NCBI GenBank assembly: GCA_050633245.1
Contig: JBOEGD010000030.1
Coordinates: forward strand, 64,001 to 128,000
Direction: 5' to 3'
DNA from: Calditrichia bacterium
GTDB taxonomy: Bacteria; Calditrichota; Calditrichia; RBG-13-44-9; J075
Length of the DNA: 64,000 nt
Shown here: piece after piece, positions 3,284-31,212 of the stretch
Layout of the letters: each line of letters begins with the position of its first letter
Numbering within the stretch: the first letter of the stretch is position 1
Position numbers and translations under genes: made by a program
Notes under the pieces: model-generated
What the model was told of the DNA's origin: nothing
Seen by the model: only the letters and a program-made list of their open reading frames with translations
The model's database searches: none

Positions 3284-3302
3284 CGCGGGAAGAAAACGAA
3301 TC

Positions 3303-4025
3303 ATGAACGTGCTTCGAACTATTTTCACGTTTACCCTGCTTGGTTTGTACACTGTACCACTGGCAATTATCGTAATTGTCATTGGCTATTTTGTAAAATA
3401 CTCAGACTTCAGCTATGAAGTCATTGCCAAAGCCTGGTCTCGCTGGCAGCTTTGGTGCGCTGGCATCAAAGTGAATGTAAAAGGACAGGAAAACCTGCAG
3501 GATGATCAATCGTATATGATCGTCTGTAACCACCAAAGCCACTCCGACATTCCGGTTATGCTGGCTCATATGCCAATGCGAATGACAATAATCGCCAAGC
3601 AGGAACTGTTTAAAATTCCTTTTTTTGGCCCGGGAATACGCGCATTAGGTATTCTGCCTATTGACCGTAAGAATCGCGAAAAGGCCTTTCGCACTCTGAA
3701 GGAAGCGGCAAAGGTTATTCACGAACGCAATATTTCCGTTTTGGCTTTCCCCGAAGGCACACGCACTGATGATGGAAAGATGCAGCCATTTAAGAAGGGC
3801 CCCTTTATGTTGGCCGTTGATGCGGAAATTCCGATTTTACCCGTAACTATTGATGGCACATTTGCTATTTTTCCAAAAGGCAGTTATACCTTCAAGCCCG
3901 GAAACGTAACGCTAACCATCCACCCACCGATTTCTGTAGAAGGCTACTCACGAGCAAACAGAGATCAGCTGATGGCAATTGTCCATGAAACAATGAGCAG
4001 AGGACTCTATGAAACCGTGGAATAA
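3303..4025 (+). CDS. plsC: 1-acyl-sn-glycerol-3-phosphate acyltransferase
   Basis: NHQSHSD (HX4D), IDR, FPEGTR motifs. Confidence 0.9.
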   Translation: MNVLRTIFTFTLLGLYTVPLAIIVIVIGYFVKYSDFSYEVIAKAWSRWQLWCAGIKVNVKGQENLQDDQSYMIVCNHQSHSDIPVMLAHMPMRMTIIAKQELFKIPFFGPGIRALGILPIDRKNREKAFRTLKEAAKVIHERNISVLAFPEGTRTDDGKMQPFKKGPFMLAVDAEIPILPVTIDGTFAIFPKGSYTFKPGNVTLTIHPPISVEGYSRANRDQLMAIVHETMSRGLYETVE

Positions 4026-4650
4026 TAAGACCAACTGCTTTGTATCTGATCACCCGCTGATTGCAGATAAATTGACTGTATTACGAGACAAGAATACAGT
4101 TTCAGAAATTTTTCGATCCGGGCTGGAAACCATTAGCCAATTTTTGTTTTTTGAGGCATCACGTCACATGAAATGCCGGGTTACTCCAATTGAAACACCT
4201 CTTGAAGCAATTGATGGCCAGCAGCTGGAACAGCCAATCTTACTTGTTCCTATTCTGCGGGCCGGGCTAGCCATGTCCAACGCCATTCGCCAGGTTTGTC
4301 CTGCCAGTGTTGGCATGATAGGTATGTACCGCGATCACGAGACGCTCCAACCTGTAGAATATTATTTGAACCTTCCTGATAGCGCCCCCGAAATGGAAGT
4401 CTTTTTACTGGATCCGATGTTGGCAACAGGAGGAAGTGCCGTTGCTGCAATTGAGGCCATCCACAAACAAGGTGTGAAAAAGATTACCATGATCGCCCTT
4501 ATCGGCGCCCCGGAAGGCGCAGACAAAATACATGAATCCTTTGCCGACATCCCCATCTATCTCGCCGCAATGGATCGACAGTTAAACGACATCGGCTATA
4601 TTCTTCCCGGTCTTGGCGATGCCGGAGACCGCTATTTCGGCACAGAATAA
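4009..4650 (+). CDS. upp: Uracil phosphoribosyltransferase
   Basis: PILRAGL, LLDPMLATGGS, YILPGLGDAGDRYFGT. Confidence 0.97.
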   Translation: MKPWNNKTNCFVSDHPLIADKLTVLRDKNTVSEIFRSGLETISQFLFFEASRHMKCRVTPIETPLEAIDGQQLEQPILLVPILRAGLAMSNAIRQVCPASVGMIGMYRDHETLQPVEYYLNLPDSAPEMEVFLLDPMLATGGSAVAAIEAIHKQGVKKITMIALIGAPEGADKIHESFADIPIYLAAMDRQLNDIGYILPGLGDAGDRYFGTE

Positions 4651-18637: not shown

Positions 18638-18995
18638 GGCACTCTCATATGTTGGTTATTTTATAGTAATTCTTTTCAAGTCACCCTATACCCGCGCCTG
18701 AGCGCGCCTAATCTTTCCCAAAATGCAATCGAAATTAAATCATTTTTAAATGACTTGCTACTGTTTTTTAAGACATTGAATGTAATTGGACGAACGAATG
18801 CCTTGCTGGAAGTTCACGCATTCTTTTTGGGAGAGAACAAAAACATTGTCATGATAAAAGTGTTAATACAATATTAGATCTACGTCTTTAACAAACGGAG
18901 AAAGTTTTTTGCAGAATCTTAAAGGTGGAGGTTTTTAAGAAAAAATTCAAAATTCTTTACTGATTAACAGAATATAGAGTACCCGTCTAGCTCAC

Positions 18996-19028
18996 AAGAT
19001 TGGAGCATTGTCAGAATGCTCCAATCTT
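18996..19028. repeat. GGAGCA-family palindrome or terminator
   Basis: aagattggagcatt-gtcag-aatgctccaatctt. Confidence 0.7.
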
Positions 19029-19035
19029 AGAAAAA

Positions 19036-20760
19036 TCAGCGAACGAGCAGCATCTTTTTTACCTCGATATTCCCATCAAACTGCATTCGGTAAAGATAGA
19101 CTCCGCTTGCGAGATTCGCAGCGTCAAAGGACAGCTGATACTGTCCGGCTGCGCGGGATTCGTTTAATAATATCGCTACGGTTCGACCAAGCGGGTCGAC
19201 AACATCAATGTAAATCGATCCCGATTGCCGGGTAGCAAACTCGATAGTCGTAGCCGGGTTAAACGGATTCGGATAGTTTTGCTTTAGTTCGAAGGATTTG
19301 GCAACAGCTGAAGTTGTAGGCTCAAGTCCTGTTAACACCGGAGACATTGAGCGAAAGACGCCACTACCATTGGTTCCGGCATAAACATGGCCAGCATTAT
19401 CAACCACAAAGGACCAGACGCCCGCATTTGTCAGACCGTCGTTAAAGGGCACCCAATTAGCACCTGCATCATCAGAGCGGAAAATGCCAGCCCCGTGGCT
19501 GGCAGCCAACATGTATGGTCCGGCTTCAAGAATATCCATTACGTGCGTATTGGGAAGAGCAATTTGCGACCAGCTAACTCCGGAATAGCGATAGATACCA
19601 TCAAACCAGGCACCCGCTAAAAAGCCGCCAGCGACATCAGGCTCTAACGTGCGCACATCAATTCCAGAGAGTCCAATAAGATCCCAGGAATCTCCACGAC
19701 TACTGCTGCTGTAAAGGCCTTCACCTGCCGTTCCGGCAAAAACATCACCAGATTGATCAACCGCAATCTTGTAAACAATGGTGCTCAATAAACTCGGGTC
19801 AGATTTATTCTCCCAATTTAGACCACTGTCTTCCGAACGAAAAACACCACTCAATACAGTTCCGGCATAAACTTCACCCGCAGGCGCTTCAGCCATAGTT
19901 AGAACAACTGAACTGCCCAAGCCATTATTTGCCTGTGTCCAATTCAACCCATTATCGTTACTTCGAAAAATGCCATCACCATTTGTAGCGGCGAACAGGT
20001 TACCAGACTGCGTGGCTATCAGATCTAAAACGTCGAGATTCGATAGGCCGGTATTTCGTTGGGTCCACTCGGACATGCCATTCTCGGAGAAGAATACGCC
20101 ACCGGTATCACTTGCAACAAAAACGCCATTAGACGTACTGACCATCGCATTCACAATAATATTATTCAGATCGGTGTGAATCCAGTCTACCCGCTCAATG
20201 TTACTGCCACCAGCTTCCAGAATCCACAGTCCACGCTCTGTATCCAGCGCAATTAAAACTCCATCGACAAATGCAATATCTGTCAGGAGCCTATTGTTTA
20301 AAGGAATATTTATCTCAGTCCAGGCACGCCGGTTTTTATAAATCACTACGATACGTTGATCATTGGTAAGGGCATAAAAGGCTTCATCTGAGACGGTAAT
20401 TGCAAGAGGTCTTTGAGAGGCCTCATAAGCAGGCACACGAAAGGAAGGTGATTTTGCATTCTCCTGCAGCTGTTTGTTAAATCGTGTTAGAAGAGTTGCT
20501 TCAATATTTTCAACCGTTCCATCGATGCGCACCCAGTTGAGTCCACGATCGGCGGATTGCCAAAAGCGTTGTCGACTTTCATGTGTGGCAGTAAGCAGGC
20601 GACCGTTATCGGATCCGGTGATTGAAACAGCTTCAGAAGGAAGCGCGCTCCCGGATTGTTGCCAGCTGGCAATCTGCGAATGGCCTGGTGTGATAAGGAA
20701 GAATAATAGCAGGCAAACGATTAAGCTGCCTGGGGCTATATGAAGAAATATGTTTTTCAT
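19036..20760 (-). CDS. Secreted BNR/Asp-box beta-propeller protein with T9SS-type C-terminal sorting domain
   Basis: Signal peptide; repeated G.FRS.D.G.NW; C-terminal QNYPNPFNP...ASGVYLYRM...KMLLVR. Confidence 0.85.
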   Translation of the reverse strand: MKNIFLHIAPGSLIVCLLLFFLITPGHSQIASWQQSGSALPSEAVSITGSDNGRLLTATHESRQRFWQSADRGLNWVRIDGTVENIEATLLTRFNKQLQENAKSPSFRVPAYEASQRPLAITVSDEAFYALTNDQRIVVIYKNRRAWTEINIPLNNRLLTDIAFVDGVLIALDTERGLWILEAGGSNIERVDWIHTDLNNIIVNAMVSTSNGVFVASDTGGVFFSENGMSEWTQRNTGLSNLDVLDLIATQSGNLFAATNGDGIFRSNDNGLNWTQANNGLGSSVVLTMAEAPAGEVYAGTVLSGVFRSEDSGLNWENKSDPSLLSTIVYKIAVDQSGDVFAGTAGEGLYSSSSRGDSWDLIGLSGIDVRTLEPDVAGGFLAGAWFDGIYRYSGVSWSQIALPNTHVMDILEAGPYMLAASHGAGIFRSDDAGANWVPFNDGLTNAGVWSFVVDNAGHVYAGTNGSGVFRSMSPVLTGLEPTTSAVAKSFELKQNYPNPFNPATTIEFATRQSGSIYIDVVDPLGRTVAILLNESRAAGQYQLSFDAANLASGVYLYRMQFDGNIEVKKMLLVR

Positions 20761-20949
20761 GGCGTCAGTTGGGTTTAGTGAAACTTCGATGATTTTGTTT
20801 ATTCACTTATATCGGCAGAATTTAATTCTACTTTTCCCGACAAATCGCCTGTTCCCGTAAAAAGATAAGGTACATCTTTGCTTTTTCAAAACGTGAAAGG
20901 CTTTTGCCTAAAATTCGATAAGACCCCTAAGAGTTCTCAAGTAATCTAC

Positions 20950-20966
20950 ATCAAATGCTATGCCAG
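20950..20966 (-). promoter_or_regulatory. sigma54 -24/-12 promoter (GA at -12)
   Basis: CTGGCATAGCATTTGAT on minus strand. Confidence 0.6.
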
Positions 20967-21065
20967 CTAATAGCAGCAAAGCAAAAAACAAACACAGGTT
21001 GTTGTTTATTAAAAACTTAAATCCAAAAATCCAGTTAAGCATTCTCGTATATAAAAAAGACTCGC

Positions 21066-21099
21066 TGCAAATTTTGCAGCGAGTCTTGCAGGATATGCA
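21066..21099. promoter_or_regulatory. Candidate bEBP enhancer pair; first site lies inside terminator-like hairpin 21057-21087
   Basis: TGCAAATTTTGCA and TGCAGGATATGCA, 21 bp apart. Confidence 0.5.
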
Positions 21100-21107
21100 A
21101 CTTTTAT

Positions 21108-21144
21108 GGAAAAGGCAGACCGGCTTAGCCGGCCCGCCTTTTCC
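21108..21144 (-). terminator. Hairpin after the DUF4397 gene
   Basis: Minus strand ggaaaaggcgggccggc-taa-gccggtctgccttttcc, G-U pairs on minus strand. Confidence 0.65.
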
Positions 21145-21170
21145 GGGGTCCGTCCCTTGGGTTCCATGGG

Positions 21171-24100
21171 TTATTTGGACAACACCATTTTTCGGGAGGA
21201 TACAAATGAGCCTGCATTTATTTGATAGAAATAAACACCCGACGGGAACTGTGCAGCATTAAAGTCCAGTGTGTAAGCACCAGCACTCTGACGCTCACTT
21301 ACCAGGGTTGCTACTTTCTGTCCGGCAATGTTGAAGATAGTAACAGTTACGTCGCTTGATTGCGGAATAGAGTAGCGGATCGTAGTCGTCGGGTTGAACG
21401 GATTCGGATAGTTCTGCTCAAGCTCGAAGTTATTGATCGTTCCATCGAGCAGATCATCCTCAATACCTACGATTGGCGAGAACTCTACTACATCGCCATT
21501 TGGCAGTGCAGCAAAGAGTCCAAAAGCAGGACCGTTCTGGTTTGCTGAAGGCGTTAGGAAGCCAGAGGCAAAAACCTGAGCGGCTCCACCGGCAAGACCG
21601 GAAAGGTCAGCAGTAAAAGAAGCCACTACGGTTGAACCACTCGCATCCGTTACATCGAGTGTGTATGAAGCAGCAGGGACGCCAACATATCCCGTAATGT
21701 CACCATATGCCGCGTCGTCTACCAAGGTTGCAACACCGCGCGCAACGACGTCGACAGTTGGTGCATCGGAGGAGCCATGCAGCGCAGAGAACTCAACTGT
21801 ATTAACATCAGTAGAAGCTTCTTGACCTGTTGGATTGATGAACAGACCGAAAGCAGTACTTCGTCCATCCGGGTTCGGAGCAAATGCACTCGGATCGAGA
21901 ACACCATTGGCAATAACCACATAGGTCTCACCAGGAGTCAGAGTTACATTGAAATTAGCTAATGTATCACCAACACCACCGCTATTCGGACCGGCAACAC
22001 CAATGTCAATCGGCGTGCCCGCAGGTGCATCAATAAATGCAGTGGCATCACGGAAGGCAAAATCATCAAGAAGAATTCCACCGTTAAGATAAATATCAAC
22101 AACTGCTGCGCCAGGATCAGCGGCATTGTGAATGACTTGAACACGCGCTGTGTTGATCGCAGGAAATTCTACGATGTCACCCGTTGGTAAGGCTGCGAAT
22201 AAACCGAAAGCTGCGCCATTTTGATTTGCTGAAGGATCTAAAAATCCGGAAGCGAAAACAGTAGCGGCTCCGCCGGCGAGTCCCGAAAGATCAGCGGCGA
22301 AGGATGCGACCGTTACTGCTCCGCTTCCATCTTTTACGTCTAATGTATATGCTGCAGGGGGAACACCAATATAGCCGGTGATGTCACCATATGCTGCGTT
22401 GTCTACCAGTGTCGCAACACCCCGCGCATCAACATCAACAGTCGGCGCATCGGAAGAACCATGAACAGCAGCGAATTCAACGGTTGCCGGATCGCTGGAA
22501 GCTTCCTGGCCAACCGGATTAATAAATAAACCAAAAGCAGTGCTACGGCCATCAGGGTTCGGAGCAAAAGCTGTTGGATCGAGAACACCATTGGCAATGA
22601 TTACATACGTTTCACCAGCTGTAAGCGTCGCAGTAAAGTTCGCAAGCGTATCGCCTACACCGCCACTGTTAGGGCCAGCAACACCAATATCAAGCGGCGT
22701 GCCCGCAGGAGCATCAATAAATGCTGTTGCATCGCGGAAAGCAAAGTCGTCTAGAAGAAGTCCGCCGTTTAGGTAGACATCGACAATCGCTGCTGCCGGG
22801 TCGGCTGCATTGTGAATAACTTGAACACGGGCGGTTGTGATTGCCGGGAACTCTACAACATCACCTGTAGGTAAGGCTGCAAATAGCCCGAAAGCTGCAC
22901 CGTTTTGATTTGCTGAAGGATCCAGAAAACCGGAGGCGAACACCTGGGCTGCCCCGCCGGCAAGTCCGGAAAGGTCAGCTGCAAAGGACGCTACGGTTAC
23001 AGTACCTGTTGCATCTTTTACATCAAGCGTATAAGCTGCTGGTGGGACACCAACGTAACCGGTAATGTCGCCATAAGCTGCATCATTTACCAGAGTAGCA
23101 ACGCCGCGGGCATCGACATCAACTGTGGGCGCATCGGAAGAGCCATGTAAGGCAGAAAACTCAACCGTCGCTGGATCGGTGGATGCTTCCTGACCGAGTG
23201 GGTTTACGAACAGGGTAAAAGCAGTACTACGACCATCAGGGTTCGGCGCGAAAGCTGTTGGATCAAGAACACCGTTGGCGACAACAACGTAGGTCTCACC
23301 TGGTGTCAAAGTCACATTAAAGTTAGCAAGCGTATCGCCTACGCCACCACTATTCGGGCCAGCGACACCTATATCAATTGGTGTACCTGCAGGCGCATCG
23401 ATAAATGAAGTAGCATCGCGGAAAGCAAAATCATCAAGAAGAAGACCGCCATTGAGATACACATCCACAAGCGCAGCGCCTGGATCAGCCGCATTGTGAA
23501 TTACCTGGACTCGAGCAGTATTCGCTGCAGCACTTCCTTTATGAATAACGTGATCGACCCACAAATTGTCTGATGAGCTTCCTGAAGGACCTCCATCAGT
23601 TATGTAATAATTGATGGCGACGAATGGCTCGCTACCGGCAAATGCAGACATATCAAACGCATAACGATTCCAGGAACTAACAGGGCCATCGACTTTAAAG
23701 TAGCCAACAAGGTCTGTAAAGCTACCAAGTGAACTGTCGGTAGTCGAAACCCAAACACGAAGCGAATCAGGAAAATTACCATCGATTGCGCCAGCATAAA
23801 AGATTAGACTATCACCAGACTCAACGGCCGGTAATTGAGGTGAGATGATATATTCATCAATCAGAAACCCATTCGCATTATTAAAGCTGCTGAAAAAGAA
23901 ACTTTGTCCGGCTTCCGGGAAAATAGAATCACCGCTGAGAAAACCGACATCTTGACGAAATTCCCATCCGGCACCACTGCCGTCGTTATCAATCAACTGC
24001 CAACCGGCGGGCAGCGTAGTGGTATCAAATGTTTCTTCAAACTTAACGTTTTTCTCAGCAGCAACTTCCTGATTGCCGGGAACACCGCGCTCAAATTCAG

Positions 24101-24200
24101 TCGCGCGAATGCGATCTACAATTTCATCCTGCGCCAATAACGACATTGGCAGAACAAAAGCTGCAATCAGCAAACCTCGTAGTAAAACAGTAAACTTCAT
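21171..24200 (-). CDS. Secreted protein: cleaved-adhesin/choice-of-anchor J-like domain, three tandem DUF4397 repeat units, T9SS-type sorting domain
   Basis: Signal peptide from MKFTVLL after GGAGG RBS; LPAGWQLIDNDG..DEYIISP; 3x ARVQVIHNAADP...HGSSDAPTVDV; QNYPNPFNP. Confidence 0.88.
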   Translation of the reverse strand: MKFTVLLRGLLIAAFVLPMSLLAQDEIVDRIRATEFERGVPGNQEVAAEKNVKFEETFDTTTLPAGWQLIDNDGSGAGWEFRQDVGFLSGDSIFPEAGQSFFFSSFNNANGFLIDEYIISPQLPAVESGDSLIFYAGAIDGNFPDSLRVWVSTTDSSLGSFTDLVGYFKVDGPVSSWNRYAFDMSAFAGSEPFVAINYYITDGGPSGSSSDNLWVDHVIHKGSAAANTARVQVIHNAADPGAALVDVYLNGGLLLDDFAFRDATSFIDAPAGTPIDIGVAGPNSGGVGDTLANFNVTLTPGETYVVVANGVLDPTAFAPNPDGRSTAFTLFVNPLGQEASTDPATVEFSALHGSSDAPTVDVDARGVATLVNDAAYGDITGYVGVPPAAYTLDVKDATGTVTVASFAADLSGLAGGAAQVFASGFLDPSANQNGAAFGLFAALPTGDVVEFPAITTARVQVIHNAADPAAAIVDVYLNGGLLLDDFAFRDATAFIDAPAGTPLDIGVAGPNSGGVGDTLANFTATLTAGETYVIIANGVLDPTAFAPNPDGRSTAFGLFINPVGQEASSDPATVEFAAVHGSSDAPTVDVDARGVATLVDNAAYGDITGYIGVPPAAYTLDVKDGSGAVTVASFAADLSGLAGGAATVFASGFLDPSANQNGAAFGLFAALPTGDIVEFPAINTARVQVIHNAADPGAAVVDIYLNGGILLDDFAFRDATAFIDAPAGTPIDIGVAGPNSGGVGDTLANFNVTLTPGETYVVIANGVLDPSAFAPNPDGRSTAFGLFINPTGQEASTDVNTVEFSALHGSSDAPTVDVVARGVATLVDDAAYGDITGYVGVPAASYTLDVTDASGSTVVASFTADLSGLAGGAAQVFASGFLTPSANQNGPAFGLFAALPNGDVVEFSPIVGIEDDLLDGTINNFELEQNYPNPFNPTTTIRYSIPQSSDVTVTIFNIAGQKVATLVSERQSAGAYTLDFNAAQFPSGVYFYQINAGSFVSSRKMVLSK
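21470..23520 (-). repeat. Three intragenic tandem repeats, 684-bp (228-aa) period
   Basis: gcattgtgaa at 23491, 22807 and 22123; near-identical protein units with many synonymous DNA differences. Confidence 0.9.
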
Positions 24201-24331
24201 AGAAGCCTCCAGATAAGATAGGGTTTTGGTTATTTGGGTTACACTTAAATTATCATACATACGTTGACTGCCTTGGGTTGAAGCAGACTTCGCTAAATAG
24301 TCAATTCGAAACCGCTTATGCCCGTTTTAAT

Positions 24332-24348
24332 ATCAAAGGTTGTGCCAA
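24332..24348 (-). promoter_or_regulatory. sigma54 -24/-12 promoter (GA at -12)
   Basis: TTGGCACAACCTTTGAT on minus strand. Confidence 0.7.
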
Positions 24349-24436
24349 CGACAAAAGGGGGACAAGCAAACCCATGCTAAATAGACACTTAGAACAAAAA
24401 AGGCGAGATGGGCCGAGTTAAGAGGATCTGCTGAAA

Positions 24437-24470
24437 TGCAAAATTTGCAGCAGTGATTGCAGAATTTGCG
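24437..24470. promoter_or_regulatory. Candidate bEBP enhancer pair
   Basis: TGCAAAATTTGCA and TGCAGAATTTGCG, 21 bp apart, about 116-149 nt upstream of the predicted start site. Confidence 0.6.
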
Positions 24471-24498
24471 AACGATAAGCGTTTTGCGCGTTCAGCAA

Positions 24499-25269
24499 TT
24501 AGAAGCGGATTGTAAGGCCAACTGAAGAAGTGGAGAGATTGGGCTGGATTGAGATAGATTCATCTTTAATCTGACTAAAGAATATTGCATCAATATGAGA
24601 ACTTAGCCATACGGATGCCAGGGCGTAGCCCCAGTAAAACTGACGCTGATATGAGTCATTGTATGTGTTGTAGCGAGATTCAAGAAGAGCGCGATCCGTT
24701 TCATTGATATACTCGTCGAAGCGGGTTTGTGTATTCAAGATAGACTGCCCGGTGCCGGTAATAGAAATTACTCCCATTGTAGCCCAGACAATGCCTTTAA
24801 TCTTATAGCCTCGGCGATATTGTTCCCAACCGGGAAAAACCAATGACCGCCAGGGTCGATTCTCTTTTTCAAAAGCCATTGCTGCTTCAATTGCGCTAAG
24901 GCGTTGTTGGATAGCAACAGCATAGTCCAGCTTAGCTTGTTGAAATACAAGTAAGATTTTGGGTGAAGTCGTTAATCGATCCAGCTCGATCGTCGGGTCG
25001 ATATCAAGCATCTGCCTGAAATAACTACGCGCAACTTCACTGTCATCGTTTTGGATGCGCTGAAAAGCACCGTAGCGATATATCTCTACCTGTACATCAG
25101 CCGGGTATTTTTGCGGTTGTTCGAAAGCTTTTTCGAGCAGACTATCTAATGCACTATAGTTGAAATTGTCGTAGGCAGATTTTAGCTCATCAGCCAGGCT
25201 TGATGACTGGCTAAAAACCGGAGCCACGAGAACAGACAGGAAAAGCGCTATGGTGAGTTTTTCTATCAT
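24499..25269 (-). CDS. Exported protein, TPR-like N-terminus and DUF5683-like membrane C-terminus
   Basis: Signal peptide; A.SYFRQML.IDP...SPKI; WRSLVFPGWEQY...KG; ends VGLTIRF. Confidence 0.7.
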   Translation of the reverse strand: MIEKLTIALFLSVLVAPVFSQSSSLADELKSAYDNFNYSALDSLLEKAFEQPQKYPADVQVEIYRYGAFQRIQNDDSEVARSYFRQMLDIDPTIELDRLTTSPKILLVFQQAKLDYAVAIQQRLSAIEAAMAFEKENRPWRSLVFPGWEQYRRGYKIKGIVWATMGVISITGTGQSILNTQTRFDEYINETDRALLESRYNTYNDSYQRQFYWGYALASVWLSSHIDAIFFSQIKDESISIQPNLSTSSVGLTIRF

Positions 25270-25394
25270 ACAGAGCTTATCTGAATCAAAGGGTTATCAG
25301 TTATTCCTAGCCTGTTAATATACGCAGGAAAAACGAATTCGCTTCAAAAAAAGTTCCGAGTTTTGCCGGAAAAAGAGTATCCTGAATTGAGAGC

Positions 25395-25625
25395 AACAGG
25401 AGCAGTTTCGAAAACTTCTCCTGTTTTGGAAAAGGGGTTTCTTTAAATTGTAAAAGAACAAACACTGGAGCATTGTCAGAATGGAGCAGTCTTGGGATTT
25501 TTGAGACTCTGTACTTAATTATAAAAAAGACATGAAATTTTGAAAAATATATTCAAAATCTCACATTGGAGCATTGTCAGAATGGAGCAGTCTTTATTAT
25601 AAAAAACACCGAAAATTTTGAAAAA
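25395..25625. repeat. Cluster of GGAGCA-family repeats with an imperfect ~100-bp direct duplication
   Basis: Hairpin 25395-25425; tggagcattgtcagaatggagcagtctt at 25466-25493 and 25567-25594, each followed by a similar attataaaaaa..aaattttgaaaaa tract. Confidence 0.75.
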
Positions 25626-25636
25626 AAAATAAAGTT

Positions 25637-27313
25637 TTAGCGCAAATTCAACGTCACACGACGTGTCAGCGTATCACCTTTTACAATCGTAATGCGGTCT
25701 TTTCGATTCTGTTGCGGATGTCGAAGCTCCAGCAAATATGAACCGGGTGCTAACATAAGAGGTTTTTTGAGGGGTGTAGTGCCGTACAGCTTATTATCAA
25801 TATACACATCTGCCCACGGACGAACCGAGAGCTCCAAATATCCCATATTATTATAAAACGACCAGCTTAACTCCCGTGAACTTCCCGCTTCTATAGTCAC
25901 CAAATTTACACTTGGCGGAAAGTTTGGATGTGTTAATCGAATGGAGTGCTGTCCCGCAGGTAAGCTGAGTTCCAAGTTTGATGCACGAGCCTCAACCTTT
26001 TTCTCATCAACAAATACCGAAGCCCAAGGATCAACATTCAAAATCAATTTCCCCGGCGCAACAGCTAAAACATCTTCCATCAAACTATCATTCGTTTGAA
26101 CCTCTCCACGCTCTGATTCCTCTTCAGAAAAGTCCTTTCGACTTAAACCACTGGACAAATCACTTTGTTGTTCAGGAACAATTTCGCCTAAACCCGCTTG
26201 CTCTTCCACGCCCCTTACAACACGAGAAATATCCGCGATTAGAGAATCGGACTGTATGAACGAGCTATCCACAAAGCTCTGCCCAGGATCTTCGTCAACT
26301 GAAATTTTTGCCGCAATTGACTGCTGCATCAGCACAGCGACAAAAGCCAGCAGCGTCAGTAGAGCAACACCGCCGGCAACCAGTGGCCAACGCTTTCTTC
26401 GTGCCACAACCGCAGCAATTTCTCCACTCGGTTTCAATACCCGTTGGTGTTGCTCTGCGAATTTTGACAATAGTTCGGATATTGCACCAAAGTCGCCTCT
26501 ACGCAAACCTTGCAGCGCATTCCGTGCTTCAGATGCCGAAGACCAACGTTCATCCGCGCGCTTCGCCAGCAGCTTTGTGATAAAGGCTATCTCTGTATCT
26601 GTTAGATCTTTACGTAGCTGAGCCAGAGGCTGAGGGTCTTCATTGAGAATCTTATGCAAACAAGCCGTAAAGCTCTCACCTTCAAACGCCTGCTTACCAG
26701 TAAGCAGCTCATACAAAACGCATCCAAGCGAAAATAAATCGGCGCGCCCATCAGGGTCGTCACCAGTAATTTGCTCTGGGGACATATAGGCCGGAGATCC
26801 AACCATCGCATCTTGGTGAGTCACGGTCGAGTCTCCTTCAACGCGTGCAAGCCCAAAATCCGTGACCTTTAGTTTGCCATTCATTGCGAGCAGCACATTA
26901 GCCGGCTTGATGTCTCGGTGTGTAACTCCGGCGGCATGCGCATAATTCAATGCCTGCAATATTTCATCTGCCATTTGGAAAACAACTTCGGCCTCCAGCT
27001 GACCATTCTTCTCCAAAAGCTCTTCGAGGTTTAGCCCATCGACGTATTCGAGTATAATGTAGTGATACCCTTGCTCTTCACCAAGCTTGTGCACGTCTAC
27101 AATATGAGGATGCTTTAACCTGGCACAAGCACGCGCTTCTTTCTGGAAACGCTTAACACGATCTTCCTCCCCCTCAATTCCGGGGCGCAGCAACTTCACC
27201 AATACTCTTCTTTGCAAATTGGACTGTTCGCCAATCGCGACAAGATTGTACGGACCAACATAAATTATGTTGGTCAATTGCACATCACCGATTGTTGAGA
27301 AGGGAAGATGCAT
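25637..27313 (-). CDS. Membrane Hanks-type Ser/Thr protein kinase with C-terminal PEGA-like domains
   Basis: VLVK, HRDIKPAN, DFGLA, YMSPEQ, DLFSLG; TM WPLVAGGVALLTLLAFVAVLM; 2x PWA.V.D..G PEGA pattern. Confidence 0.92.
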   Translation of the reverse strand: MHLPFSTIGDVQLTNIIYVGPYNLVAIGEQSNLQRRVLVKLLRPGIEGEEDRVKRFQKEARACARLKHPHIVDVHKLGEEQGYHYIILEYVDGLNLEELLEKNGQLEAEVVFQMADEILQALNYAHAAGVTHRDIKPANVLLAMNGKLKVTDFGLARVEGDSTVTHQDAMVGSPAYMSPEQITGDDPDGRADLFSLGCVLYELLTGKQAFEGESFTACLHKILNEDPQPLAQLRKDLTDTEIAFITKLLAKRADERWSSASEARNALQGLRRGDFGAISELLSKFAEQHQRVLKPSGEIAAVVARRKRWPLVAGGVALLTLLAFVAVLMQQSIAAKISVDEDPGQSFVDSSFIQSDSLIADISRVVRGVEEQAGLGEIVPEQQSDLSSGLSRKDFSEEESERGEVQTNDSLMEDVLAVAPGKLILNVDPWASVFVDEKKVEARASNLELSLPAGQHSIRLTHPNFPPSVNLVTIEAGSSRELSWSFYNNMGYLELSVRPWADVYIDNKLYGTTPLKKPLMLAPGSYLLELRHPQQNRKDRITIVKGDTLTRRVTLNLR

Positions 27314-27314
27314 G

Positions 27315-28802
27315 TTAATCCTGAATATCCCACTCTTTAGTTTTGTAGTGCACCCAGCGGAGGGAAACGCCCATCATCTCAGCGGTATGCGTTTTATTTC
27401 CTTCGCAAGATCGCAGTGTCTTCAACAGTAAAATACGAGAGACATCGTCTAACGTCATTCCAGAATCAATCCGATCTTGCTGCTGAAGACCGCGCACAAT
27501 AACATCCGATTCCTGAATTTCTTCCCCCGAAGACAATACAACAGCACGTTCAATTGCGTTTTCCAGTTCCCGCACATTGCCGGGCCAGCCATAAGCCTGT
27601 AATGAATCCATTACATCCGATGCAAACCCATGCCTGCGTTTCCCCATAGCAGTAGCAAACTTCTTCAGGAAGTGCTCGGCAAGCAGTGGAATATCACTTT
27701 TACGCTCACGCAGCGGTGGCAATTCGATTAGAATAATGCTCAGTCGATAATACAAATCTTCACGAAAGCGACCTTCGCGCACCTCATCGGCTAAATTGCG
27801 GTTCGTTGCCGCAATAATGCGCACATCAACTTTTTTAGGGGAGGCACCGCCAATAGGCATAATCTCTTTTTCCTGTAGGAAGCGCAGTAGCTTCGCCTGA
27901 AGACTCATTGGGATTTCAGCAATTTCATCTAAAAAAAGCGTTCCGGAGTTCGCAACCTCAATTAGACCTTTTTTATCGGCATTAGCACCGGTAAAAGCTC
28001 CCTTTTTGTAACCATACAGCTCGCTTTCCAACAAGTTTTCCGGTAGCGCGGCACAGTTAACGGGAATAAAGGGTCGGTCTTTACGCATGCCATTATAGTG
28101 AACCGCGCGGGCAATCAACTCTTTTCCGGTACCCGTTTCACCAACAATTAGCACCGTTGTCGAATTGTCCAGCACCTTCTTAATAATGTCAAAAACCGGC
28201 TGCATCGACTTGCTTGAACCAACGAGCTCTTTAAACGAGTAAATGCGATTCACTTCCTCTTTCAGCACTTCGTTTTCCTGCCGAAGCGATGCCAGAAGTC
28301 TGGCATTTTCAATCGCGATTCCTGCCTGGTTTGCAAACGCGGCCAAAAAGTCCAGGCTCTTTTGATTGAATCGCGCTTTCTGCCCACGACTGTCAATATA
28401 AATAGCGCCGATTAAAGTACCCTTTATTTCCAGTGGCACGCAGGCAATGGAACGAATTTTTTGCATCACCACCGAATGAGATTGATCAAACTGCTCATCC
28501 GTTAGTGCATCAAATGTAAGGATGGGCTTTTGAGCCTTTATCACACTTTCAATAGCCGTGCTGGAGATTTCACTGCTGTCTGCGCTCTTGCCGCTATCAT
28601 CTGTCCGCGAAGCTTTCGGAACGAGTTCTTCATCATCTCCTTCTTTCAACAACACAAACCCGCGTTCTGCCGAAAGCTGCTTAATGGCAATCTCAAGAAT
28701 GCGCGACAAGAGCGATTCCAGGTTCTGAATGGAATTAATCTCGGCACTCACTTCCACAAGTGCGGATAGATACTGTTCAGGAATGTTCAGAGCATTACTC
28801 AT
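27315..28802 (-). CDS. GAF-domain sigma54-dependent transcriptional activator (bEBP, Fis-type HTH)
   Basis: GAF (SIACVPL..IGAIYID); GETGTGKE, ESELYGYKKGAFTGA, LFLDEI, WPGNVRELEN; NKTHTAEMMGVS. Confidence 0.95.
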   Translation of the reverse strand: MSNALNIPEQYLSALVEVSAEINSIQNLESLLSRILEIAIKQLSAERGFVLLKEGDDEELVPKASRTDDSGKSADSSEISSTAIESVIKAQKPILTFDALTDEQFDQSHSVVMQKIRSIACVPLEIKGTLIGAIYIDSRGQKARFNQKSLDFLAAFANQAGIAIENARLLASLRQENEVLKEEVNRIYSFKELVGSSKSMQPVFDIIKKVLDNSTTVLIVGETGTGKELIARAVHYNGMRKDRPFIPVNCAALPENLLESELYGYKKGAFTGANADKKGLIEVANSGTLFLDEIAEIPMSLQAKLLRFLQEKEIMPIGGASPKKVDVRIIAATNRNLADEVREGRFREDLYYRLSIILIELPPLRERKSDIPLLAEHFLKKFATAMGKRRHGFASDVMDSLQAYGWPGNVRELENAIERAVVLSSGEEIQESDVIVRGLQQQDRIDSGMTLDDVSRILLLKTLRSCEGNKTHTAEMMGVSLRWVHYKTKEWDIQD

Positions 28803-28824
28803 ACAGCCTCTGCTTTCTATATAC

Positions 28825-29796
28825 TTAGTTTGAAATGATCAGGAAGCGTTCGCGAGAGCGGCTGCGATTGCCAATATTATCTTCTACCCCGATTGTCCAC
28901 TCGTAGCGGCCGTTTTGTAGTGCAGGAAGAGAATCCGGCCAAACAAGTTCCAGAGTTGAAGGCGAGATGTCTCTTGCGGTAAACCGCTCCACTGGAATCC
29001 CAAGATTCAACCGCACAACCTCCAGTGTAAAGCTATAGCTGAAGCCGGCAGAAAAGTTGTGCCATCTGAATAGTGGGCGTGCACTTGCGGTATCGGATTG
29101 TGCCGGAGCCAGAGCCAACGGAATATCGTTTATGATTCGTCGTAGAAAAAATGGCCCTGAAGTTACTCGACTTCCGGGAATATCGGTAAGTGTAAAAAAG
29201 GCATTCTTTTCAACAAGCGGTATCAGGCTAAGGCTAAATGCAGGATCAGTATCAGGAATGATCAGCTCAAACTGATTTGGCGCAACGCGATTCGCCGCAC
29301 GGCGGAATGGTATATCGGGGATTTCAATAATCAAGCTATCCAAATCAAAGTCGCCATCTGAGTCCTCTGCATTTAATGTGATAACCGCTTCCACAAAACG
29401 TCCCGGAATTGTGGTGTCGACATTTCGACTGGTATAGCTAAAGCTGCGGACCTCAGGCAGTCCATTCAGCACAAAGTTTCGATTCGAGATATTACCATTT
29501 GCCGGTAGATCCACGATAAGCGTATCAGCCTCAAATAATGGACGTTCTGCAATTGCGCGATACTGTCCCGGTGGAATACCGGTAAACTCGAAACGCCCAT
29601 CGGCATCGGTGAATACAAAGCGATCGAGCGGCTGCAGCGTAACCTTAACTCCGGAAAGCGGATCGCGAGGTTGATAAAAGGAAAATGCCCAACCCTCAAT
29701 ACTACCACTGGAAACACTGTCCAGTGGGTTTTCGCGAGGCGCATCAGGAACGCAACCAGCTGTAAGGAAAAATAATGTTAGCAGTATCCGTTTCAT
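28825..29796 (-). CDS. Lipoprotein with carboxypeptidase-regulatory-like (prealbumin-fold) domain
   Basis: Lipobox LTAGC; PRENPLD; TDADGRFEFTGIPPGQY; 22 nt from the bEBP start. Confidence 0.8.
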   Translation of the reverse strand: MKRILLTLFFLTAGCVPDAPRENPLDSVSSGSIEGWAFSFYQPRDPLSGVKVTLQPLDRFVFTDADGRFEFTGIPPGQYRAIAERPLFEADTLIVDLPANGNISNRNFVLNGLPEVRSFSYTSRNVDTTIPGRFVEAVITLNAEDSDGDFDLDSLIIEIPDIPFRRAANRVAPNQFELIIPDTDPAFSLSLIPLVEKNAFFTLTDIPGSRVTSGPFFLRRIINDIPLALAPAQSDTASARPLFRWHNFSAGFSYSFTLEVVRLNLGIPVERFTARDISPSTLELVWPDSLPALQNGRYEWTIGVEDNIGNRSRSRERFLIISN

Positions 29797-29858
29797 TTTT
29801 TCCAGTAACTCGGTGATCGATGATGAGTTTGCTCAACTATCAGGTTAAACCATCGCTT

Positions 29859-29884
29859 TGGCTTCGACTCCGCTCAGCCTGACG
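29859..29884. repeat. REP-like element of the CTTCGACTCCGCTCAG type
   Basis: tggcttcgactccgctcagcctgacg, a widespread short intergenic repeat type; single copy here. Confidence 0.5.
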
Positions 29885-29904
29885 CGAGTTAACGTCTTGC
29901 GCCG

Positions 29905-31212
29905 CTAAACCACATAGTTCTCGAGCGCATCTTTGTACGTTTTCAATACTCGCTCACGAGCAAATTTATGTTCTACAATCGCATTGGGATACTCTAACGA
30001 ATTAAGCTCTGGTACCCACTTTTTTATATACTTCAACTCTGAGTCAAACTTTTTAACCTGTGTGTACGGATTAAATACTCGAAAATAAGGTGCAGCATCA
30101 CATCCACAACCTGCAGACCATTGCCAGTTTCCATTATTAGCAGACAGCTCAAAATCCAGCAGCTTACGAGCAAAATATGCTTCGCCCCAACGCCAATCGA
30201 TTAACAAATGCTTCACGAGAAAACTTGCTGTAATCATACGAACGCGATTGTGCATAAATCCGGTGGTATTGAGTTCACGCATCCCGGCATCGACAATCGG
30301 ATAGCCCGTTTTACCATCGCACCACGCCTGAAATTCCCGCTCATTATTACGCCAGGGAATATCACTGTATTTTTTCTTAAACGGACTCCCAACGACATAA
30401 GGAAAATTCCAAAGAATCATCATAAAGAATTCACGCCAAATCAACTCATCCAGCCAGGTTTCGTTTAACTCCAGCGCTCGGCGAACCAGACGACGAATGC
30501 TTATCGTACCAAATCGCAGGTGAACACTCAAGCGCGTTGTACCATCTACGCTCGGAATATCTCTGGTATCGTGATAGCTCTGTACCAGCTCTTCACGAAG
30601 TTCAGCTGAAGGAAATTCCTGTCCTGCCGCTGCAAAGCCAAGTGACTCGAGGCTTGGTATTTCAAACGCAGTCGTCGACAGAAAGTTTTCCACCTCTTCC
30701 GATGGATGAGAGCGAATATGCTCTCCCATCAGGAAGCTGCGCCATTTATTCTTGAACGGTGTATAAACAGTGTATGGTGTTTCCTGCGCAGTCAAAATCT
30801 CCGTCTTTTCAAAAATTACCTGATCTTTGAAGGTGCGGAATTCAATTCCTTTTTCACGAAGCATCGCTTCAACAGCCTCATCACGAGAACGAGCGTAGGG
30901 TTCGTAATCGTGATTCGTATATACCGATGCAATTTCGAACTCATTCATAAGCTGCTGCCAGACTTCAATCGGCTTGCCATGGGCAACTAACAACGAACTC
31001 CCTTTTTCCTTGAGAGACCGATTGATTTCGCTAAGATGATGATGGATGAATTCGACACGACGATCATCTCGATCCTCTAACTTCTCCAGAATCGTCGAAT
31101 CGAAGATAAAAAGTGGTAATACGGGCAGCTCGCCCTTCAATGCAGCATGTAGTCCAACGTTATCTTCAAGACGAAGATCACGTCGAAACCAGAAAACGGC
31201 TATTTTTGACAT
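29905..31212 (-). CDS. phrB: Deoxyribodipyrimidine photolyase (CPD class I-like)
   Basis: WFRRDLRLEDN, ELIWREFF, GKTGYPIVDAGMREL, MHNRVRM, NNGNWQW, APYFRVFNP. Confidence 0.95.
   Translation of the reverse strand: MSKIAVFWFRRDLRLEDNVGLHAALKGELPVLPLFIFDSTILEKLEDRDDRRVEFIHHHLSEINRSLKEKGSSLLVAHGKPIEVWQQLMNEFEIASVYTNHDYEPYARSRDEAVEAMLREKGIEFRTFKDQVIFEKTEILTAQETPYTVYTPFKNKWRSFLMGEHIRSHPSEEVENFLSTTAFEIPSLESLGFAAAGQEFPSAELREELVQSYHDTRDIPSVDGTTRLSVHLRFGTISIRRLVRRALELNETWLDELIWREFFMMILWNFPYVVGSPFKKKYSDIPWRNNEREFQAWCDGKTGYPIVDAGMRELNTTGFMHNRVRMITASFLVKHLLIDWRWGEAYFARKLLDFELSANNGNWQWSAGCGCDAAPYFRVFNPYTQVKKFDSELKYIKKWVPELNSLEYPNAIVEHKFARERVLKTYKDALENYVV

Follow-up and report, generated by a model that had tools for sequence, protein, structure and literature searches.

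A candidate envelope-controlled sigma-54 cassette next to type IX-sorted proteins in a Calditrichia bacterium

Genes of the locus and their conservation

The window analysed here is a 64,000-nucleotide stretch of DNA from a Calditrichia bacterium. At 19036-29796 it holds a four-gene cassette and its cargo, six co-oriented open reading frames on the minus strand, in agreement with the gene set, coordinates and shared orientation given in an earlier, sequence-only reading. The cassette runs in the order lipoprotein, sigma-54 activator (bEBP), membrane Ser/Thr kinase and p256-type membrane protein, and the features are the following.

28825-29796, minus strand: lipoprotein, 323 aa; Pfam CarboxypepD_reg (39.8 bits, cut-off 32.3)
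27315-28802, minus strand: bEBP, 495 aa; Pfam GAF, Sigma54_activat, AAA_lid_14, HTH_8
25637-27313, minus strand: Hanks-type Ser/Thr kinase, 558 aa; Pfam Pkinase, PEGA
25270-25636, minus strand: gap of 368 nt from the kinase to the p256 gene, with two direct repeat copies
24499-25269, minus strand: p256, membrane protein, 256 aa (AF2 model, alignment)
21171-24260, minus strand: T9SS cargo 1, 1029 aa; Pfam Cleaved_Adhesin, six DUF4397, Por_Secre_tail
19036-20760, minus strand: T9SS cargo 2, 574 aa; Pfam Por_Secre_tail and sub-threshold BNR/propeller matches

The signal peptide of the lipoprotein ends in Cys15, which is conserved at a level of at least 90% in an alignment of 38 sequences. In the same alignment it is followed by an invariant APRxNPxD tether peptide, after which come three beta-sandwich domains, of which the first resembles CarboxypepD_reg. 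The AF2 model (pLDDT 92.3, pTM 0.80) is all-beta with three blocks, and Foldseek returned only generic tandem Ig/FN3 matches for it.

For the bEBP, Pfam places GAF at 27-165, Sigma54_activat at 193-359 (238.8 bits), AAA_lid_14, and HTH_8 at 450-491. The intact GAFTGA motif claimed earlier is present in the translation, and the C-terminal HTH is of the Fis type, with a recognition helix of the '...GVSLRW...' type. In the kinase, a cytoplasmic kinase domain (Pfam Pkinase at 22-260, 165.8 bits) is followed by a single hydrophobic helix at about 309-330 and, after a low-complexity linker, by two PEGA domains in the periplasm (Pfam PEGA in two stretches, 38.9 bits). Receiver, FHA and histidine-kinase domains had been described as missing from the cassette, and Pfam indeed finds none of them there; nor does it find a phosphatase within the cassette.

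The fourth protein, p256, consists of a signal peptide, a TPR-like helical domain, two long helices, hydrophobic at their ends, and a tail that is disordered; SPK and PG motifs are invariant in its family. Its AF2 model (pLDDT 87.8) matches TPR/peptide-binding domains in Foldseek at E≥0.09 only, and the protein has no Pfam family at E≤0.01. Of the earlier label "TPR-like/DUF5683-like", the TPR-like part stands, while the likeness to DUF5683 is weak and below cut-off (E=0.023, 15.2 bits, cut-off 26.7); DUF5683 is matched by 21 of the 38 family members, with a best E of 2.7e-5. The match to the TssQ family is also weak (E 5.8e-4, 20.4 bits, cut-off 65).

A repeat insertion sets the window p256 gene apart from the rest of the operon. 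The gap contains two copies (25567-25592 and 25466-25491) of a 26-nt repeat that occurs in 46 dispersed copies across the genome, and it is much shorter in orthologous loci without a Kelch gene. A loose promoter scan of the gap gave no convincing sigma-54 element, only a weak CGGAAC-N5-TTGAA at 25358, and no recognisable promoter was found for the window p256 gene.

In cargo 1, six DUF4397 repeats accompany a choice-of-anchor J/Cleaved_Adhesin domain (NCBIfam choice_anch_J, 75.7 bits), and cargo 2 has a BNR/sortilin-like beta-propeller. Both carry a type A sorting domain (NCBIfam TIGR04183, cut-off 23; 47.3 bits in cargo 1 and 32.6 bits in cargo 2). The genome has SprA and two PorU homologues above the family cut-off. 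It also has rpoN (198 bits, 496-aa open frame), on which the earlier proposal of sigma-54 control depended.

To examine the gene order, 51 loci were collected by lipoprotein motifs alone, and the count was restricted to the 41 with at least 7 kb beyond the lipoprotein start. The lipoprotein, bEBP, kinase and p256-type genes are co-oriented within 8.5 kb in 40 of these 41, although the locus counts overstate independence because many loci are near-duplicates (e.g. L066/L072 and L053-L058). The order suggested as a check by the sequence-only reading is thus kept, usually adjoining sorting-domain genes, in loci from Calditrichota, Ignavibacteria and other FCB-group lineages, and the present genome has four paralogous copies. 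A sorting-domain or CarboxypepD_reg-repeat gene lies immediately downstream in only 24 of the 40 loci. In one Ignavibacteria group the next gene encodes a 364-aa protein without a Pfam family, and a Kelch-T9SS gene, absent from the window copy, is found in 18 of the 40. Literature searches found no description of the cassette, which is conserved across the FCB group and apparently undescribed so far.

A quite different reading is that of an anti-phage defence system built around the Ser/Thr kinase. In PADLOC, the models PD-T4-6 and mad6 recognise the kinase domain, and RtcR-type models the AAA+ domain. These matches are, however, at the domain level only, with none for the lipoprotein, p256 and both cargo proteins, and the kinase possesses a membrane helix as well as PEGA domains on the periplasmic side. 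Furthermore, the cassette is widespread in the phylum, where 65 of the 86 genomes searched match the lipoprotein profile at E≤1e-55, whereas defence islands are patchy. We give a defence role almost no credence.

Promoters and enhancers of the cargo genes

Both cargo genes are preceded by a TGGCAY-N5-TTGAT element and, about 100 nt upstream of it, by two TGCA-N5-TGCA-type palindromes 21 bp apart.

24437-24470: candidate enhancer pair of cargo gene 1, CGCAAATTCTGCA (24458-24470) and TGCAAATTTTGCA (24437-24449), centres 21 bp apart
24332-24347, minus strand: sigma-54-type promoter of cargo gene 1, TGGCACAACCTTTGAT; distance to the first ATG 72 nt
21057-21099: candidate enhancer pair of cargo gene 2, TGCATATCCTGCA (21087-21099) and TGCAAAATTTGCA (21066-21078), centres 21 bp apart
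20950-20965, minus strand: sigma-54-type promoter of cargo gene 2, TGGCATAGCATTTGAT; distance to the ATG 190 nt

Before cargo gene 1, about 97 nt separate the -24 GG from the centre of the proximal site upstream of it, and the distal site is imperfect (CGCA...TGCA). Before cargo gene 2, the proximal site falls within a hairpin of 14 pairs with a T-run behind it (21057-21087), a strong terminator-like structure that is likely the terminator of cargo gene 1.

It is conceivable that these motifs are chance matches or plain terminators and that the cargo is expressed from ordinary promoters. The pattern TGGCAYN5TTGMW has two matches in the 64 kb, both upstream of cargo genes, at an expected count of 0.61; this number is not significant alone, because 13 of 100 shuffles give at least two. 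Similarly, the three TGCA-N5-TGCA matches in the window, all 97-135 nt upstream of the two promoter elements, compare with 2.04 expected and are not significant alone (at least three in 32 of 100 shuffles). That one palindrome falls within the terminator hairpin fits such a reading too, as does the -12 element, which in both promoters is TTGAT and not the canonical TTGC. In genome-wide counts, the non-coding enrichment per base of TGGCAY-N5- is about 5-fold with TTGA, about 15-fold with TTGC and 0.6-fold with TTGG. In our assessment, the significance of the window motifs rests on position and cross-genome conservation, not on counts.

The sigma-54-like regular expression, run over 1.78 Mb (both strands) of orthologous loci, gave 50 matches, 28 of which are at two fixed cassette positions: 9 in the kinase-Kelch gap and 19 in the 0-600 nt that follow the p256-type gene. 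The cargo-1 promoter position is kept in orthologous loci, and so is the paired-enhancer architecture. After the p256-type gene, 12 of 40 loci gave no match, even by a position matrix trained on the found sites.

The palindrome type was found to change with the DNA-reading helix of the activator. Loci with an 'SVRW' HTH carry CGAA-N5-TTCG, which in exact form occurs 32 times in 890 kb; 9 of these copies fall in the 7.3 kb of sequence upstream of the promoters, all in SVRW loci. The 'SLRW/SLRS' loci, the window included, carry TGCA-N5-TGCA, often in pairs 19-21 bp apart. This rule therefore predicts CGAA-N5-TTCG for the SVRW paralogue in the present genome, and the prediction held: within 20 kb there is a single exact copy, situated in the gap where it was expected and some 105 nt upstream of TGGCATGATATATGTA.

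Across the genome, 108 sites match the strict promoter pattern, and 7 of them are preceded by an exact TGCA-N5-TGCA no more than 260 nt away; given that the genome has 253 palindromes of this kind, about 1.1 would be expected by our estimate. Among these seven is a site distant from the window whose palindrome is the same as the window's; it fronts a DUF4397 lipoprotein gene followed by a second DUF4397 gene. A position conserved across phyla, the covariation with the HTH and its confirmation in the paralogue, and the recurrence of the motif pair at the DUF4397 operon all argue against chance matches, which we consider very unlikely. The earlier assignment of sigma-54 promoters with TGCA-N5-TGCA pairs is backed by the cross-genome position and the HTH covariation, and these comparisons give good support to a sigma-54-dependent expression of the cargo that is driven by the activator.

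Proposed control of the activator

One base separates the bEBP stop (27315-27317) from the kinase ATG (27313), exactly the 1-nt spacing noted before, and in 43 of 45 loci no more than 20 nt lie between stop and start. The kinase is presumably translationally coupled to the activator. The genome encodes 33 bEBPs and 18 Hanks kinases, and a co-oriented Hanks-kinase neighbour is present for 6 of the 8 GAF-bearing bEBPs, compared to 0 of the 25 others, 16 of which have receiver domains. The sensor architectures of the six adjacent kinases are PEGA (four), CHASE2 (one) and FG-GAP/BNR (one). Judging by the topology from domains and models, the bEBP is the sole wholly cytoplasmic cassette protein within the reach of the kinase domain. 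From the tight coupling and the exclusive kinase/GAF-bEBP association in this genome, we infer that the kinase controls the activator.

The best explanation of the whole, which we hold with moderate confidence, is a GAF-activator/sigma-54 switch of T9SS cargo that is kinase-controlled by an envelope cue. The membrane kinase would sense an envelope or surface cue, its two PEGA domains facing the periplasm together with the three-domain lipoprotein and the TPR domain of p256, three parts that might form a relay. It would control the GAF domain of the activator, most likely by phosphorylation, freeing the AAA+ ring from repression. The well-supported part is that the activator binds the paired TGCA-N5-TGCA palindromes about 100 nt upstream of the -24/-12 promoters and, together with sigma-54 RNA polymerase, turns on the two adjoining T9SS-sorted proteins and, most likely, the distant operon of DUF4397 proteins as well. 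The cassette thus probably turns surface proteins on upon an envelope signal.

Another option is that the bEBP acts alone, with the GAF domain sensing a cytoplasmic small molecule, and that the kinase, lipoprotein and p256 constitute a separate co-expressed envelope module, which may for example phosphorylate T9SS or envelope-biogenesis targets. The GAF domains of NifA-/NorR-type activators are known to sense small ligands with no kinase involved (PMC2941729). Among the NCBIfam models, the bEBP matches nifA best (414.2 bits over residues 10-442, under the equivalog cut-off of 528.85), Pfam finds no FHA or other phospho-reader domain, and the GAF residues Ser80 and Ser110 are invariant in the 51 sequences over which bEBP conservation was assessed, with nothing that flags them as phospho-acceptors. 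The short bEBP-kinase distance across the loci points the other way, however, and the confinement of kinase adjacency to GAF bEBPs, over three unrelated sensor architectures, is hardly explained by co-expression alone. We regard an independent bEBP as rather unlikely.

The kinase could also be an anti-activator that acts by direct binding in the NifL-NifA style, its autophosphorylation state setting the binding. Partner proteins classically control GAF-bEBPs, as in NifL-NifA (PMC12998190), and the tight coupling of the two genes fits stoichiometric co-production. However, the catalytic residues K40, E59, H132-R133-D134, K136, N139, D152-F153-G154 and P179-E180 are all invariant in 34 sequences, which argues that phosphotransfer is under selection, and binding alone is in our view improbable.

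Comparison with known systems

The NifA/NorR-type activators have the same domain order as the bEBP, from GAF through AAA+ with GAFTGA to a Fis-type HTH, and share activation from palindromic sites about 100 nt upstream of a -24/-12 promoter. Apart from the sub-cut-off score, the differences are in the targets, nif or nor genes as opposed to T9SS cargo, and in the partner, which is NifL or absent there and constantly a Hanks kinase here.

The sequence-only reading drew an analogy to FecARI, which is a loose one. The broad idea of envelope proteins relaying to an alternative-sigma promoter is shared, but the FecARI components are missing, since Pfam detects neither a TonB-dependent outer-membrane transducer nor an ECF sigma or anti-sigma factor among the cassette proteins, and the logic differs because sigma-54 needs an ATPase activator. 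A closer parallel is a membrane kinase of the PknB or PpkA style that works with accessory envelope proteins. The threonine phosphorylation pathway of the Pseudomonas aeruginosa H1-T6SS, TagQRST-PpkA-PppA-Fha1, acts post-translationally on the secretion machine via an FHA protein. It likewise has a membrane Hanks kinase with a periplasmic domain, envelope accessories including a lipoprotein, and a secretion-related output, whereas the output of the cassette would be transcription via GAF-bEBP and sigma-54, without an FHA protein or phosphatase.

In myxobacteria, bEBPs linked to Ser/Thr kinases carry FHA domains, while the FCB cassette has no FHA domain and is tied to T9SS cargo. A Myxococcota cluster is found among the p256 look-alikes in the ESM Atlas (score 0.95, rank 11), as a lead only.

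PrsK-PrsR regulates PEP-CTERM/exosortase genes, PrsR being a response regulator that has a receiver domain and a histidine kinase as its partner. It is likewise a sigma-54 activator dedicated to proteins with a common C-terminal sorting signal, but the window bEBP scores 365.1 against the PrsR (TIGR02915) cut-off of 502.6, and it has GAF and no receiver. Finally, PorX-PorY-SigP of Porphyromonas gingivalis is a two-component system with an ECF sigma that acts on T9SS machinery genes. It shares with the cassette a dedicated regulation linked to type IX secretion within the same superphylum, and differs from it in that the cassette is a kinase/GAF-bEBP/sigma-54 unit on neighbouring cargo genes.

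Genes of the cassette and their products

The segment 19036-29796 holds six ORFs, all co-oriented on the minus strand (ORF listing and translation).

Genes of the cassette (coordinates, strand, product)
28825-29796, minus, lipoprotein, 323 aa: signal peptide ending in Cys, CarboxypepD_reg (Pfam/NCBIfam)
27315-28802, minus, sigma-54 activator (bEBP), 495 aa: GAF, Sigma54_activat, AAA_lid and HTH_8, GAFTGA present (Pfam/NCBIfam)
25637-27313, minus, kinase, 558 aa: Pkinase, one hydrophobic helix, two PEGA stretches (Pfam/NCBIfam)
24499-25269, minus, p256, a two-helix membrane protein, 256 aa: no family at E<=0.01 (Pfam)
21171-24260, minus, cargo 1, 1029 aa: choice-of-anchor J/Cleaved_Adhesin, six DUF4397 repeats, T9SS type A sorting domain
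19036-20760, minus, cargo 2, 574 aa: BNR/sortilin-like propeller, T9SS type A sorting domain

These Pfam and NCBIfam identities agree with the six ORFs and domains described by the sequence-only reading, which thus described the genes correctly. The six proteins contain neither a receiver nor an FHA or histidine-kinase domain (Pfam/NCBIfam scan), and the ATG of the kinase lies one base past the stop codon of the activator. The cassette is flanked by unrelated genes, a glycine dehydrogenase and a photolyase (Pfam). Rfam gives no match at E<=0.1 within 18500-30500, no RNA dataset containing the window was found, and the best DNA datasets share at most 0.13 of its words. A role in anti-phage defence was rejected, since PADLOC gave domain-level matches only, to the kinase and to AAA+.

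The AAA+ domain of the activator scores 238.8 bits with Sigma54_activat (residues 193-359, Pfam), and the GAFTGA, GETGTGKE and LFLDEI blocks are found in its translation and conserved across 51 sequences. With its HTH_8 domain (residues 450-491, Pfam), candidate binding sites and sigma-54, the protein has the features expected of a bEBP. Its architecture is that of the NifA/NorR-type bEBPs, and its scores are below all NCBIfam equivalog cut-offs; as a NifA equivalog (TIGR01817) it was rejected at 414.2 bits, under the cut-off of 528.85. Ser80, Ser110, Ser118 and Ser138 of the activator are conserved and would be candidate phosphosites.

The kinase is of the Hanks Ser/Thr type, with a Pkinase score of 165.8 bits (Pfam) and all catalytic motifs in place. 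Lys40, Glu59, His-Arg-Asp132-134, Asn139, Asp-Phe-Gly152-154 and Pro-Glu179-180 are invariant among 34 sequences, and Thr165 and Thr173 of the activation segment almost so; the glycine-rich loop is degenerate in the window translation. Judged by these motifs, the kinase is an active enzyme and no pseudokinase. Its extracytoplasmic domains are of the PEGA and not the PASTA type (Pfam), and assignment to the PknB/Stk1 PASTA type (NF033483) failed at 276.2 bits against a cut-off of 450, with the kinase domain alone covered.

The predicted structure of the lipoprotein consists of three beta-sandwich domains (pLDDT 92.3, pTM 0.80), for which Foldseek returned nothing beyond generic tandem Ig/FN3 ectodomains. 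Its best-conserved stretch is the peptide right behind the lipidated Cys, where A19, P20, R21, N23, P24 and D26 are invariant. The model of p256 (pLDDT 87.8) comprises a signal helix, a pair of TPR-like hairpins and three long helices, two of them hydrophobic at their ends; Foldseek gave no match at E<=0.001, and weak ones (E>=0.09) to TPR peptide-binding domains. Membership of p256 in DUF5683 (PF18935) was rejected at 15.2 bits (E 0.023) against a gathering threshold of 26.7. Since 21 of 38 members of its family match DUF5683 at E<=1, the best at 2.7e-5 and below threshold, p256 is likely a distant relative that is not a member under the Pfam rule. Identity with the T6SS lipoprotein TagQ/TssQ (NF038027) was likewise rejected (20.4 bits, cut-off 65), and a Myxococcota look-alike of p256 is a lead from the ESM Atlas only. 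From the models we infer a periplasmic location for the lipoprotein, for PEGA and for the TPR domain, and a cytoplasmic one for the activator and the kinase domain.

The sorting domains of cargo 1 and cargo 2 score 47.3 and 32.6 bits with TIGR04183, for which the cut-off is 23 (NCBIfam). The genome has the T9SS machinery (two PorU homologues over cut-off, plus SprA), so that both proteins have what is expected of T9SS type A cargo. The rpoN gene, on which the sequence-only reading depended, is also present. T9SS sorting domains are abundant in this genome, with ~245 tblastn segments matching the C-terminal domain of either cargo.

Conservation of the cassette and its paralogues

With the six window proteins as tblastn queries against the 6.3-Mb genome, three further co-oriented lipoprotein/activator/kinase sets were found, on contigs C36, C7 and C4. 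Two of these have a tblastn match to p256, and in the third its counterpart was located by ORF listing and alignment. All three also encode a Kelch-repeat protein of ~440 aa, bearing a T9SS sorting domain, which is not present in the window copy.

Of the 86 genomes searched for this phylum, all have a match at E<=1e-5 to a profile built from the four lipoproteins, and 65 have one at E<=1e-55, often several per genome. The lipoprotein family has 898 representatives at E<=1e-30 (50%-identity clusters), giant repeat proteins included. A locus search with a single lipoprotein returned only look-alikes sharing the CarboxypepD_reg domain, from unrelated phyla, and an alignment query was used instead. 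A scan of public genomes for two motifs conserved in the lipoprotein gave 51 loci, chosen by the lipoprotein alone, from Calditrichota, Ignavibacteria/Melioribacteraceae, other Bacteroidota and one Rubrivirga. Caldithrix, Ignavibacterium and Melioribacter are represented in this set.

The gene order, whose conservation the earlier reading had proposed as a check, is kept. Of the 51 loci, 41 have at least 7 kb past the lipoprotein start, and 40 of these encode an activator, a kinase and a p256-type protein in the same orientation within 8.5 kb, in addition to the four copies in the window's genome; it is important to note that many of the 51 loci are near-duplicate metagenome bins, so that these counts overstate independence. 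The Kelch gene is present in 18 of the 40 complete cassettes and absent from 22. Directly after the p256-type gene, 24 of 40 loci have a gene for a sorting-domain or CarboxypepD_reg-repeat protein. Among 20 external downstream proteins (Pfam), 12 are CarboxypepD_reg-repeat proteins, three have VWA domains, two are BNR/sortilin propellers, one is an M14 peptidase, and the remaining two have a sorting domain only. The conserved lipoprotein-activator-kinase-p256 set and the diversity of the proteins behind it indicate, at the level of gene content, that the regulatory part of the cassette is constant and the cargo variable.

In a quick maximum-likelihood tree of the 51 activators, the classes of recognition helix fall into separate, mostly well-supported clades, and the branch of the window is long. 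The four copies of the window's genome are spread over different classes, which indicates that, by this tree, the paralogues diverged long ago and are probably insulated from one another.

In one Ignavibacteria group, the p256-type gene is followed by a 364-aa protein with no Pfam family (L053:15100-16463 and the near-identical L054-L058). Its gene is preceded by TGGCAC-N5-TAGCA, with the canonical -12 GC kept, and is followed by a gene for a WG-repeat protein.

Promoter-like elements, enhancers and the predicted regulon

The pattern TGGCAYN5TTGMW has two matches in the 64 kb, at 24332-24347 and 20950-20965, on the coding strand and one before each cargo gene. TGCA-N5-TGCA has three matches, every one 97-135 nt upstream of these two promoter-like elements; if one mismatch is tolerated, two palindromes with centres 21 bp apart precede each promoter. 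The counts alone are not significant, being reached by 13 of 100 shuffles for the promoter and 32 of 100 for the palindrome, and the case rests on position and on the comparison with other genomes.

In both window promoters the -12 element is TTGAT, not TTGC. Genome-wide, the non-coding enrichment per base of TGGCAY-N5- followed by TTGA is ~5-fold, as compared to ~7.5 for TTGT, ~15 for TTGC and ~0.6 for TTGG, which makes TTGA a plausible -12 variant in this genome. The proximal palindrome of cargo 2 is located within a 14-pair hairpin with a T-run (21057-21087), the strongest terminator-like site of the region, and the same stretch may thus serve as both terminator and activator site.

Across the 51 loci (1.78 Mb, both strands), a sigma-54-like regular expression has 50 matches, of which 19 lie just past the p256-type gene and nine between the kinase and Kelch genes. 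In Kelch-bearing cassettes, the Kelch gene thus seems to make up a sigma-54 unit of its own together with p256. A position-matrix promoter scan is trained on the sites that it finds, and was for this reason used only for missing promoters.

Two classes of palindrome occur upstream of the promoters in the 51 loci, and they follow the recognition helix of the activator. Loci with '...GVSVRW...' have CGAA-N5-TTCG, and loci with '...SLRW...' or '...SLRS...', the window included, have TGCA-N5-TGCA, commonly paired 19-21 bp apart. These two classes emerged from a GC-filtered count of gapped palindromes; the count without the filter gave A/T runs only. Of the exact palindromes in 890 kb, 9 of 32 CGAA-type and 3 of 20 TGCA-type ones lie in the DNA upstream of the promoters, which totals 7.3 kb, each in a locus of the matching class, with no cross-class case among them. 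The rule also predicted the C7 paralogue correctly: this copy is of the SVRW class, and over 20 kb an exact CGAA-N5-TTCG is found only once, ~105 nt ahead of TGGCATGATATATGTA, in the gap that follows its p256-type gene and precedes the next gene for a T9SS protein. The C7 kinase and Kelch genes have a CGGTAT-N5-TTGCA element between them.

The sigma-54 promoters and paired enhancers that the sequence-only reading placed before the cargo genes are thus backed by their position across genomes and by their covariation with the helix, and sigma-54- and activator-dependent expression of the adjacent T9SS cargo is a well supported prediction. It makes the cassette a concrete, testable regulatory unit with defined activator sites, promoters and targets, all predicted. 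The code (SVRW with CGAA-N5-TTCG, SLRW/SLRS with TGCA-N5-TGCA) can be used now for regulon prediction in metagenome-assembled genomes.

Of the 108 strict promoter matches in the genome, seven are preceded by an exact TGCA-N5-TGCA at most 260 nt upstream, compared with an estimated ~1.1 expected from the 253 such palindromes present. The window itself accounts for two of the seven, and another precedes the gene of a DUF5666-repeat T9SS protein. A further candidate target is located far from the window.

DUF4397 operon on contig C9 (coordinates in L101, G000:C9:56001-61000)
2659-3981, minus, 440-aa DUF4397 lipoprotein, related to cargo 1
1684-2478, minus, 264-aa DUF4397 protein

In front of this operon are the palindrome TGCAAATTTTGCA, as in the window, a second site 21 bp off and TGGCAC-N5-TTGTC. 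The operon is therefore, going by these motifs, a likely member of the regulon of the window activator.

Beside the C36 paralogue (L025 ~4030-4260, G000:C36 ~54030-54260) TGGCACGACAATTGAT occurs, preceded by TGCATACTTTGCA at a distance of 119 nt. This element is directed away from the cassette, toward a 297-aa membrane protein with weak cytochrome b561/ferric-reductase-like matches; on the opposite strand, a second element lies ~300 nt before the lipoprotein gene.

A 26-nt sequence has 46 copies in the genome at up to 5 mismatches, often as two direct copies ~100 nt apart and intergenic, and is apparently a small dispersed repeat element. The gap between the kinase and p256 genes is filled by one such pair (25466-25592), and a hairpin-shaped variant is found at ~19026, after the stop of cargo 2.

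Possible coupling of kinase and activator, and known systems

The FecARI analogy of the sequence-only reading turned out to be a poor model, because none of the three defining parts (TonB-dependent transducer, anti-sigma factor and ECF sigma factor) is present: Pfam finds no such domain in the six cassette proteins and four flanking ones. Closer in spirit are TagQRST-PpkA of the Pseudomonas T6SS, the myxobacterial links between kinases and FHA-bEBPs, and the PrsK-PrsR control of PEP-CTERM proteins through sigma-54, although the cassette differs from each of them in a defining part.

To our knowledge, little is established about what sigma-54 does in Calditrichota and Ignavibacteria, or about the regulation of T9SS cargo beyond a few Bacteroidia models. 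The literature searched, which did not extend to subscription-only papers and bioRxiv supplements, yielded no description of the cassette. For sigma-54 together with type IX secretion and threonine kinases, it yielded only an unrelated paper. No paper was found that joins PEGA domains or Hanks-type kinases to enhancer-binding proteins, or Caldithrix to sigma-54, and none of the matches listed for GAF domain, threonine kinase and sigma54 pairs a kinase with a GAF-bEBP. Among the matches listed for Ignavibacteria, sigma-54 and T9SS, none is relevant by title or abstract, and for DUF5683 and DUF4397 nothing functional was found. The passages of PMC12316311 that match the search terms mention neither these lineages nor T9SS.

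The distance from activator stop to kinase start is at most 20 nt in 43 of 45 loci (starts taken from the longest ORF). In the window's genome, 33 activators and 18 Hanks kinases were counted, among which there are six co-oriented neighbour pairs, all with GAF-type activators; a single genome underlies these statistics, and four of the pairs are paralogues of each other. The 27 activators that have no kinase neighbour comprise 16 with a receiver, one with CHASE2, eight with no recognised sensor and two with GAF. The paired kinases have sensor parts of three unrelated kinds: PEGA in four, CHASE2 in one (659 aa) and FG-GAP/BNR in one (1397 aa). The two non-PEGA pairs, on C5 (L029:8825-12628) and C8 (L028:9835-15763), each consist of a Hanks kinase and a GAF-bEBP, and sigma-54-like elements lie next to both pairs. 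This restriction to GAF activators, across three kinds of sensor, suggests that in this lineage GAF may serve Hanks kinases in the way that receiver domains serve histidine kinases.

Control of the activator by the kinase is plausible, as is a periplasmic sensing complex. The cassette is found in the majority of genomes in at least one phylum, often with several putatively insulated copies each. If the kinase does control the activator, this would represent a widespread coupling of Ser/Thr kinases to sigma-54 without FHA or receiver domains. It would also offer a handle on the surface signals that these uncultured lineages sense.

A joint reading, which we hold as a whole to be possible but rather doubtful, would make the Hanks kinase and GAF activator a general two-component-like class of Calditrichota, Ignavibacteria and relatives. 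GAF would act as the receiver for Ser/Thr kinases with interchangeable sensors (PEGA, CHASE2, FG-GAP/BNR). In the PEGA version, the tri-Ig lipoprotein and the PEGA domains would make up a three-part periplasmic sensor with the TPR domain of p256, which may dock the invariant APRxNPxD tether of the lipoprotein. Each genome would carry several insulated paralogues, each with its own enhancer code and its own set of T9SS cargo.

As a separate observation, the C4 cassette is closely followed, behind a TM2-domain gene, by the gene of an 841-aa protein (L027:7152-9677, also in L105) in which CHASE2 is fused directly to a sigma-54 activator core.
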